A DNA stretch of 64,000 nt, taken from the NCBI GenBank assembly GCA_036271375.1, contig DATBAT010000258.1, positions 14,813 through 78,812 on the forward strand, given 5' to 3'. The DNA is from Terriglobales bacterium (GTDB lineage: Bacteria; Acidobacteriota; Terriglobia; Terriglobales; Acidobacteriaceae). Below the pieces are notes generated by a model. The model had not been told where the DNA came from, searched no databases, and worked only from the letters and a program-made list of their open reading frames with translations. The translations under genes and the position numbers were made by a program. Of this stretch, positions 25,285 through 25,947 are shown piece after piece (within the stretch, counting starts at the first letter, position 1; each line of letters begins with the position of its first letter).

Positions 25285-25947
25285 ATGGGTGACGTTATCA
25301 ACAGCGCCGTAAATACCGTAAGTAACCTCGGCAAGGCTGTAGGGGACGCGGTCCACGGTGATTTCGGCGGGGCACTTGGCGATTTGGGTAAGGCGGGCGG
25401 CAGTCTGGCACAGACGGCGGTCGGCGGTTTCATGGCCATGAATCCGGAACTCGGAGCGGTAACCGGACTGGCAGGACAATTAGGCAATCTGCTGGGCAAA
25501 GCAGGCGGATTTAACCCCGGGCAGGCGGGCGGTCTTCCCTTGCCATTCGGTCTGGGAAACATCTTGGGTTCGATCATGCAAAATCCCCTCGCTTCTCTTT
25601 TCGGTGGGGCTGGCGCCGGAGGTGCCGGAGGCGCTGGGAGCGCAGGTGGAATCGGCGGCAATTTTGGCGGCGGTTTCGGCGGATTTCCTGGTTTGGGCGG
25701 ATTGGGATTTCCAGGTATTGGGACGGGCGGCGGGACATCCGGAGGGGGTGGCAGTGCAGCCGCTTCAGGAACGGGTGGACAAAGCTTCGCTCAACTCTCT
25801 GACGCACTGAAAAACGCCGGGGATCCGGCTTCGCAGGAAAAGGCTATGGAAGGTCTGCAAAAGTATCAGGAAGCAGTCACCATGGCGGCCACCATCGCTA
25901 AATTGCAGCACGACATGACGATGAGCATCATCGGAAAGATCGCGTGA
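25285..25947 (+). CDS. Glycine-rich, cysteine-free protein with SctF(needle)-family-like C-terminal helix (putative secreted filament/harpin-like substrate)
   Basis: 220 aa, long GGxGG tracts, no Cys. The C-terminus 'QEAVTMAATIAKLQHDMTMSIIGKIA' aligns with the C-terminus of the 115-aa needle-like protein at 29945 ('QQAFETASSVMKARHDASMAAIRNMT'). Confidence 0.6.
   Translation: MGDVINSAVNTVSNLGKAVGDAVHGDFGGALGDLGKAGGSLAQTAVGGFMAMNPELGAVTGLAGQLGNLLGKAGGFNPGQAGGLPLPFGLGNILGSIMQNPLASLFGGAGAGGAGGAGSAGGIGGNFGGGFGGFPGLGGLGFPGIGTGGGTSGGGGSAAASGTGGQSFAQLSDALKNAGDPASQEKAMEGLQKYQEAVTMAATIAKLQHDMTMSIIGKIA

Follow-up and report, generated by a model that had tools for sequence, protein, structure and literature searches.

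A glycine-rich protein with a predicted SctF-type C-terminal hairpin in an acidobacterial type III secretion gene cluster

Introduction

Needle subunits of the SctF family (MxiH, PrgI, YscF, PscF, and EscF/SsaG) in type III secretion systems (T3SSs) are canonically single-domain proteins of 70 to 90 aa that end in a helix-turn-helix in which a Pro-containing turn leads into a long terminal helix, and they are encoded in T3SS clusters beside genes for tetratricopeptide repeat (TPR)-type chaperones. Here we analyze a 220-aa protein with a similar predicted C terminus and a similar genomic setting, encoded at 25285 to 25947 (+ strand) of a 64,000-nt stretch of DNA (the window) from Terriglobales bacterium GCA_036271375.1 (contig DATBAT010000258.1, positions 14,813 to 78,812, forward strand). 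In contrast to canonical SctF, this protein carries ~165 extra N-terminal residues, which include a 58-residue stretch that is 55% Gly. Its cluster also encodes a second needle-superfamily protein, of 115 aa, which holds the E-F-G position, and the chaperone encoded next to the 220-aa protein is class II-like, not YscE/YscG-like as for SctF.

EspA of enteropathogenic Escherichia coli and the HrpA/HrpY/HrpE pili have the role that we propose for the 220-aa protein, that of a second polymerizing substrate, which builds a longer, exposed, and fast-evolving appendage. EspA and HrpA combine a conserved C-terminal assembly region with a variable N-terminal or surface part. Unlike the 220-aa protein, proteins of this type contain neither a PF09392 (T3SS_needle_F) domain nor a glycine-rich linker. 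Harpins (HrpN, HrpZ, and Hpa1) are Gly-rich, Cys-free, acidic, and T3SS associated, as is the 220-aa protein, but they show no homology to it, and they are not known to contain a needle hairpin.

The cluster shares with flagella features of a late-gene logic, with a FliA/WhiG-like sigma factor, candidate CGATAA promoters before three axial-type genes, and FliO, and flagellins occur in tandem copies, as do some orthologues of the 220-aa protein. On the other hand, the -35 element in the cluster (GCAACTT) differs from the textbook sigma-28 element (TAAA), and the cluster encodes an injectisome-type export apparatus (SctV scores higher as hrcV than as FlhA), unlike that of the flagellum. The "Myxo" nonflagellar T3SSs of Myxococcales lack the secretin and SctF, and an ancestor with SctF and without a secretin, placed between the flagellum and the injectisome, has been postulated (Abby and Rocha 2012, PMC3459982). 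FliO in a nonflagellar system has been reported for Myxococcota (PMC12248157). The cluster described here is like the Myxo systems in being nonflagellar and in having no secretin, in this case within the 64-kb window, but it contains two needle-superfamily genes and an SctI-like gene, unlike the Myxo systems, which are reported to be SctF-less. In the searchable literature, we found no account of needles from acidobacterial T3SSs or of needle proteins rich in glycine, and no study of the T3SS of Acidobacteriota.

Gene and protein

The open reading frame (ORF) has an ATG start and encodes 220 aa with 28% Gly, no Cys, and a pI of 5.13. Translation and composition agree with an earlier reading of the DNA by a model that saw only the letters and their ORFs (the sequence-only reading), and both peptide strings quoted there occur in the translation. 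NCBI holds an identical protein, annotated as hypothetical, from a Terriglobales (Acidobacteriota) metagenome-assembled genome (MAG), and syntenic orthologues are present in many acidobacterial loci; the gene is therefore real. The same evidence led us to reject the idea of a chance ORF opposite 25131 to 25661. The other elements named in the sequence-only reading, namely, a dedicated AGCAAC-N17-CGATAA site, a strong Shine-Dalgarno sequence, and two flanking TPR genes, were all found in place. Tandem-repeat and sigma-70 promoter scans of the locus gave nothing useful. The gene and its parts are as follows.

25201 to 25229, + strand: sigma-28-like motif AGCAAC-N17-CGATAA, upstream of the gene
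25273 to 25278, + strand: Shine-Dalgarno sequence AAGGAG, 6 nt upstream of the ATG, read from the sequence
25285 to 25947, + strand: coding sequence of the 220-aa protein, divergent, with a predicted SctF-type domain
25285 to 25602, + strand: residues 1 to 106, N-terminal domain specific to the family; helices predicted, without a Sec signal
25603 to 25776, + strand: residues 107 to 164, low-complexity Gly-rich linker; predicted coil, variable in length among orthologues
25777 to 25944, + strand: residues 165 to 220, predicted needle-type helix-turn-helix; helix 168 to 176, GDPA turn, helix 181 to 219

Glycine is concentrated in the linker (32 of 58 residues), and no transmembrane-like segment was found in the protein (maximum 19-residue Kyte-Doolittle mean, 0.99). 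The N-terminal domain has invariant columns in the family alignment and matches orthologues in phmmer at E values of 1e-26 to 1e-32. An AlphaFold2 (AF2) model built from a five-sequence alignment is of very low confidence (mean predicted local distance difference test [pLDDT] score, 38.9); in it, helices are predicted at residues 2 to 23, 27 to 52, 60 to 73, and 94 to 106, followed by a helix at 168 to 176, a turn, and a 39-residue helix at 181 to 219.

The most conserved stretch of the N-terminal domain is GQAGG-x-P-x-PF at residues 79 to 89 (25519 to 25551), with PLPFG at residues 85 to 89. A PxPF[GS] motif occurs in 14 of 32 positional orthologues, very distant ones included, and it could be a linear ligand of a TPR groove.

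Similarity of the C terminus to SctF needles

Profile comparisons identify residues ~165 to 220 as a putative divergent SctF-type hairpin. A profile of the SGDP-turn subfamily (A7), which includes the 220-aa protein, aligned with MxiH, PrgI, YscF, PscF, and the PDB chain 7y6c_F in hhalign with a probability of 95.5% and an E value of 1.6e-8. The alignment reaches the last residue and pairs "GDP...IIGKI" of the subfamily with "SNP...IIQNF" of the needles; in the needle set, the MxiH sequence and the C terminus of PscF were checked against PDB entries, and the PrgI sequence is provisional at the level of single residues. Searched against the PDB, the same profile matched 7y6c_F (E = 5.6e-8) and PrgI (E = 0.004). 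The chain 7y6c_F is deposited under the molecule name of its co-chaperone, yet it aligns with MxiH and PscF. The needle-family C terminus proposed in the sequence-only reading thus held in a profile-profile comparison.

Further evidence comes from relatives of the protein, five of which exceed the gathering score of PF09392 (29.4 bits) with their extreme C termini (L006, 37.6 bits; L007, 37.8 bits; L008, 37.0 bits; P0098, 33.1 bits; P0122, 33.0 bits). The first three occupy the same gene slot as the 220-aa protein, whose N-terminal domain they match in phmmer at an E value of about 1e-30. The five-sequence family profile (A4) matches P0098 at an E value of 1.8e-45 and P0122 more weakly, at 7.1e-5. 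When a hidden Markov model (HMM) was made from the last 60 residues of L006 to L008, residues 166 to 220 of the 220-aa protein were its best non-self match among 4028 ORFs (E = 0.0044). A C-terminal profile of the wider family, made from the protein and 11 relatives without L006 to L008, aligned with the needles in the same register (E = 0.003; probability, 10%).

The 220-aa protein itself scores 12.4 bits against PF09392 (E = 0.19), with residues 174 to 219 aligned to positions 25 to 71 of the 71-position profile. Searches of the PDB with a single sequence or with the whole-family profile were uninformative, and only the SGDP-turn subfamily gave informative results. The single sequence aligns end to end with 7y6c_F at an E value of 0.23, and genuine needles of other subfamilies do no better against the same chain (E = 0.16 to 0.55). 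The weak matches of the protein to PF09392, to 7y6c_F, and to the HMM of L006 to L008 and the alignment of the wider-family profile all share one register.

The sequence-only reading had also considered the protein as an EspA or Hrp-pilus analogue. Membership in either family did not hold up: EspA gave no match to the protein or, in Pfam, to 32 positional orthologues, and HrpA_pilin (PF09589) was absent from the same orthologues at E ≤ 1. The NCBIfam HrpA pilin model (NF053530) matched the protein at an E value of 0.21 with no significant stretch.

A conserved gene slot with variable proteins

The first protein search was dominated by glycine words and yielded only four relatives, whose contigs show full synteny with the window. 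More family members were found through synteny around the gene for the 115-aa protein and through an exhaustive HMMER search. Homologues of the 115-aa protein led to 45 loci, nearly all from Terriglobia (Terriglobales, Bryobacterales, and Solibacteraceae). The family of the 220-aa protein is rare, with 35 members at E ≤ 1e-3 among 1.84 billion representative proteins.

In these loci, a slot bounded by the upstream TPR gene and by the PcrH-like TPR gene before sctV always encodes the same general kind of protein, which is 84 to 386 aa long, mostly Cys-free, often Gly/Ser-rich, and equipped with a helical module at the C terminus. Gly content varies from about 11 to 35% across the positional orthologues, and the slot protein of one locus (L023; ~128 aa) is not glycine-rich and ends in the same type of helix-turn-helix hairpin. 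Therefore, the constant feature of the slot appears to be the needle-type C-terminal module and not glycine. A clear helix-turn-helix end is seen in the subfamily of the 220-aa protein, in the Bryobacterales proteins, and in L023.

The slot holds two or three genes in the majority of Bryobacterales loci. Six loci (L015, L017, L019, L024, L025, and L030, at ~2.5 to 7.1 kb in each) encode Gly/Ser-rich proteins of 206 to 386 aa. Comparisons of two Gly/Ser-rich copies from one locus showed C-terminal ends of ~50 residues that are near-identical (identical in L024; similar in L019 and L025), and the end ...SDKPSDQLKAQQLMQKAQRMFEMISKMMEQRSQMMSKAIQAIK is found in the Gly/Ser-rich proteins of L024 and L030. 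In L025, a PcrH-like TPR gene follows each Gly/Ser-rich gene. Unannotated proteins of 560 to 690 aa are encoded between the Gly/Ser-rich genes in L017, L024, and L030. Despite their needle-like look, the Bryobacterales positional orthologues gave no match to PF09392; weak matches to Flg_bbr_C were obtained (E = 0.009 to 0.05).

A divergent version of the cluster is present in the cultured Silvibacterium bohemicum S15 (L039; NZ_LBHJ01000001.1), in which the slot protein has 84 aa (7003 to 7254) and the 115-aa-type protein has 195 aa (9866 to 10453). The existence of a cultured carrier makes experiments possible.

We compared evolutionary rates as median global identities among 16 Terriglobales loci for 11 cluster genes. 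The gene for the 220-aa protein is the fastest evolving of these, with the lowest median identity (39%), compared to 45 to 81% for the other genes and 65% for the 115-aa protein. Fast divergence, together with the variation in length and copy number, is what would be expected of an exposed, distal part of an appendage.

The 115-aa protein

The second needle-superfamily gene stands in an E-F-G-like order with two neighbors.

29625 to 29897, + strand: gene for a 90-aa protein
29945 to 30292, + strand: gene for the 115-aa protein
30321 to 30725, + strand: gene for a CdsG-like TPR protein

We found 91 well-conserved homologues of the 115-aa protein, and its gene is present in every related locus in which that region is covered. 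The protein contains a hydrophobic glycine zipper (residues ~33 to 62) and one long C-terminal helix with an invariant K..RHD..M.AI pattern. An AF2 model from 39 sequences (pLDDT, 58) shows the single long C-terminal helix, and Foldseek found no fold match for this model in the PDB.

The sequence-only reading took the 115-aa protein as its SctF-like reference and regarded the C terminus of the 220-aa protein as a clear paralogue of it. The shared pattern is present, and both proteins appear to belong to the needle/rod superfamily, but direct paralogy of the two C termini extends, as far as the sequences indicate, only to the superfamily level. For the pair itself, the similarity is statistically weak, and it is weaker than that of the 220-aa protein to canonical needles: BLASTP gave an E value of 0.003, and an HMM of the C-terminal helix of the 115-aa family misses the 220-aa protein. 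The same HMM reaches relatives of the 220-aa protein ahead of unrelated ORFs (P0004, E = 1.3e-6; others, E = 0.02 to 1). Of the two proteins, the 220-aa protein seems the more SctF-like, and the choice of the 115-aa protein as needle reference has to be revised: matches to PF09392 were seen in just 3 of 39 members of the 115-aa family, each under the threshold (best E, 0.0012), and hhalign of the family against the needles gave an E value of 0.0016 with a probability of 16%. Matches to the Pfam family HrpA_pilin were weak and confined to relatives of the 115-aa family.

The 115-aa-type C-terminal module also ends larger proteins in MAGs of other phyla (L045:6698-10138, L050:8366-10081, and L041:7759-8967). 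Proteins bearing the module include one of 1146 aa with a Sec-signal-like N terminus in a Chitinophagaceae MAG and one of 571 aa in a Verrucomicrobia MAG.

Promoter motif and chaperone-like neighbors

The 220-aa protein is encoded between two TPR genes, and the second of these is followed by a hairpin. A sigma factor gene stands at the head of the cluster.

13952 to 14716, + strand: FliA/WhiG-family sigma factor at the cluster head (TIGR02479; E = 5.5e-32; 111 bits, under the cutoff of 189.6)
24805 to 25194, + strand: upstream TPR protein, 129 aa, chaperone-like (TPR Pfam matches)
25961 to 26476, + strand: downstream TPR protein, 171 aa, class II T3SS chaperone-like
26499 to 26533, + strand: G+C-rich hairpin, candidate terminator

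Sigma-28 promoters have CGATAA at the core of their -10 element. For a relaxed motif, GCAAC-N14-20-CGATAA, we counted 5 sites in the window, compared to an expectation of 0.11. Its gene-strand sites lie at 14690 to 14716 (before the SctI-like gene), 20613 to 20640 (in sctQ), 25202 to 25229 (before the gene for the 220-aa protein), and 29897 to 29923 (before the gene for the 115-aa protein, with N16). Upstream of 25 of 29 positional orthologues, we found TAGCAACTT-N13-yCGATAAC, with both elements kept and the spacer sequence variable. In 757 kb from 47 related loci, a looser motif (NNNCAAC-N15-18-CGATAN) has 119 matches on the gene strand, compared to 8 on the opposite strand. The motif is not due to chance and is phylogenetically conserved, and the FliA/WhiG-like sigma factor encoded at the cluster head is a candidate reader of these CGATAA promoters.

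The site within sctQ lies just 5' of candidate internal starts (GTG 20663 and ATG 20693), ahead of the FliN-like C-terminal domain. In roughly 20 related loci, the sctQ-type site recurs about equally far upstream of the 115-aa gene (~400 to 680 in the locus). Through this internal site, SctQ-C may be made separately from a transcript of its own, or fliO-sctRSTU may be expressed.

The downstream TPR protein resembles class II T3SS chaperones in sequence: it matched PcrH in the PDB (2xcb; E = 1.6e-9; residues 19 to 143), as well as SycD (E = 1.3e-6) and AcrH (E = 1.4e-6), and it scored 53.6 bits with the LcrH_SycD model. The upstream TPR protein, whose position is conserved, scored 46.7 bits with LcrH_SycD, which is under the cutoff. 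Against the PDB, it and the CdsG-like TPR protein gave only generic TPR matches. The hairpin downstream has a 10-bp stem, and the 84-nt stretch containing it has a predicted dG of -30 kcal/mol (z = -2.0). This arrangement weakly suggests that the gene for the 220-aa protein and the downstream TPR gene form a two-gene unit that is probably cotranscribed, with the hairpin as a candidate terminator.

Role of the 220-aa protein in the secretion apparatus

We favor the reading that the 220-aa protein is a distal filament, sheath, or tip subunit on a core that the 115-aa protein forms, and we give it a probability of roughly 50%. This retains the proposal of the sequence-only reading that the protein polymerizes onto or extends the needle. 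The protein would be exported by the acidobacterial T3SS as an axial subunit, and its SctF-type hairpin (the last ~55 residues) would drive helical stacking into a tube whose lumen is lined by the C-terminal helix. In solved needles, the N terminus faces outward. By analogy with these structures, the helical N-terminal domain of ~105 residues and the disordered glycine linker of ~58 residues would project from the outer surface of the polymer. One or both of the flanking TPR proteins would probably hold the protein in monomeric form in the cytoplasm, and the protein would be expressed with the downstream TPR protein from its own sigma-28-like promoter. The 115-aa paralogue would form the proximal core, on or around which the 220-aa protein would polymerize as the distal, exposed, and fast-diverging part, a division of labor that may be likened to that of EspA on EscF or of flagellin on the hook.

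Several observations weigh against this reading. The protein's own score against PF09392 is below the threshold, pairwise BLAST found no match between its C terminus and that of a Pfam-positive orthologue, and the strong profile results are owed partly to its relatives. With its ~165-residue N-terminal extension, the protein is not a single-domain needle of 70 to 90 aa, and 220 aa is far above the canonical subunit size. The AF2 model, with its mean pLDDT of 38.9, does not give structural confirmation of the predicted hairpin. The PcrH/SycD-like class of the downstream TPR protein normally serves translocators and not needles, and the lack of a secretin in the window leaves the existence of an extracellular needle in doubt. 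The proximal and distal order of the two needle-family proteins is itself something that we infer.

A more specific form of the favored reading makes the 220-aa protein the main subunit of a distal filament in a deep-branching acidobacterial T3SS that keeps a flagellum-like logic and has no secretin in its gene neighborhood; this form is considerably more speculative, and we regard it as doubtful. The flagellum-like logic in question would consist of FliO, a dedicated sigma-28-type factor, late promoters, and a rod-like, proximal, and distal series of axial proteins, of which the distal one varies and occurs in several copies.

The strongest rival, possible but improbable in our view, is that the 220-aa protein is the sole true SctF needle, with an unusual N-terminal extension, and that the 115-aa protein is an adaptor, a second rod, or a membrane-active tip. 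It is members of the 220-aa family, and not of the 115-aa family, that pass the PF09392 threshold, and the 115-aa protein has a glycine-zipper segment unlike that of any needle and an AF2 model without a fold match in the PDB. However, the canonical E-F-G position beside a CdsG-like TPR gene is held by the 115-aa gene, which is found in every related locus that covers the region and is far more conserved. An accessory or distal part would better explain a slot whose proteins range from 84 to 386 aa and which contains two or three genes in most Bryobacterales loci, and the chaperone encoded next to the 220-aa protein is of the translocator class.

That chaperone, which is similar to PcrH, SycD, and AcrH and is encoded immediately downstream, is in turn an argument for a second rival that we consider slightly less probable still, namely, that the protein is a tip- or translocator-class "middle" substrate, of which a few copies dock at the needle end through the hairpin as a cap or platform, with no long polymer formed, while the N-terminal domain and linker act on the target cell. 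The PxPF motif could serve as the TPR-groove ligand of such a substrate, and scans against Pfam and NCBIfam revealed no other recognizable tip or translocator genes in the cluster. The protein, however, has no hydrophobic transmembrane segment of the kind that defines SctE and SctB (the hydropathy maximum being 0.99), and neither it nor the 32 orthologues matched a tip or translocator family. The tandem copies with near-identical C termini also look more like filament subunits.

Two further readings are very improbable. In one, which goes back to the "harpin-like" label of the sequence-only reading, the protein is a released helper whose targets are the cell walls or membranes of plants or fungi; the composition (28% Gly, no Cys, and pI 5.1) and the T3SS linkage fit, but the likeness is one of composition only, as no harpin family matched at E ≤ 1 in the protein (Pfam and NCBIfam) or in the 32 positional orthologues (Pfam), and what the slot conserves is the needle-type C-terminal helical module and not the glycine content. 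We know of no harpin with a needle domain. In the other, the protein is an SctX-like accessory of the export gate that binds SctV with its TPR partner and licenses the export of early substrates, and although the order of the gene, the TPR gene, and sctV mirrors yscX-yscY-yscV and the TPR protein has a subthreshold match to SctY (37.4 bits; cutoff, 70), that protein scores higher as LcrH/SycD and PcrH, no YscX family match was found in the 220-aa protein or its orthologues, the orthologues carry a bona fide needle domain, and a variable copy number is ill suited to a gate regulator.

The surrounding cluster

A scan of the window placed sctJ, sctL, sctN, sctO, sctP, sctQ, sctR, sctS, sctT, sctU, and sctV around the gene for the 220-aa protein, and together they form a complete-looking export apparatus of the injectisome type on the + strand. 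The NPTH motif is present in SctU, and an SctP-like ruler is also encoded. The remaining features of the cluster are listed below.

14718 to 15263, + strand: SctI-like (inner rod) gene, upstream of sctJ (PF17001; E = 0.0018; residues 121 to 180)
19517 to 20926, + strand: sctQ, with an N-terminal FHA domain fused to it
20926 to 21360, + strand: FliO-like gene
24401 to 24802, + strand: 133-aa protein, no assignment
26586 to 28724, + strand: sctV (hrcV, 785 bits; FlhA, 691 bits)
28725 to 29582, minus strand: conserved gene for a 285-aa protein, between sctV and the 90-aa gene
30741 to 31103, + strand: 120-aa protein, no assignment
31107 to 31628, + strand: 173-aa protein with FHA and one transmembrane helix, SctD-like

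Secretin families gave no matches among the scanned ORFs of the 64-kb window, which included nearly all of those longer than ~200 aa, and no flagellar rod, hook, or motor genes were found in the window. A CsgG-like lipoprotein with an FlgT_C-like C-terminal domain is encoded on the minus strand at 10660 to 11634, ~2.3 kb upstream of the sigma factor gene. CsgG forms outer membrane channels. Because no secretin was found, this lipoprotein is worth checking as a candidate alternative outer membrane conduit.

The minus-strand gene for the 285-aa protein keeps its position in L001 (289 aa) and L004 (282 aa) and gave no match in Pfam or NCBIfam. Three Ser/Thr protein kinases are encoded directly 3' of the cluster, at 31613 to 33760 (minus strand), 34025 to 36526 (+ strand), and 40753 to 43668 (+ strand), and on related contigs a kinase and a LysM protein are also encoded beside the T3SS cluster. 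The kinases, taken with the FHA domains of SctQ and of the SctD-like protein, suggest phosphothreonine control of the machine.

Implications

The family of the 220-aa protein is annotated only as hypothetical. An SctF-type domain behind a partly disordered, Gly-rich extension of ~165 residues, in a cluster with a second conserved needle protein, would amount to a composite appendage that has not been described. Should the protein be the major distal filament subunit, the cluster would represent a surviving form of the postulated intermediate that had SctF but no secretin, and its glycine-rich, "hairy" needle would be the exposed working surface. The system that surrounds the protein, with no secretin in 64 kb, FliO, a FliA-like sigma factor, a conserved promoter regulon, an FHA-SctQ fusion, a minimal SctD-like protein of FHA and a transmembrane helix, and Ser/Thr kinases, is noteworthy and is possibly of higher interest than the protein itself. 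The cluster bears on how injectisomes arose from flagella and on what acidobacteria, which are abundant in soil, may inject or touch.

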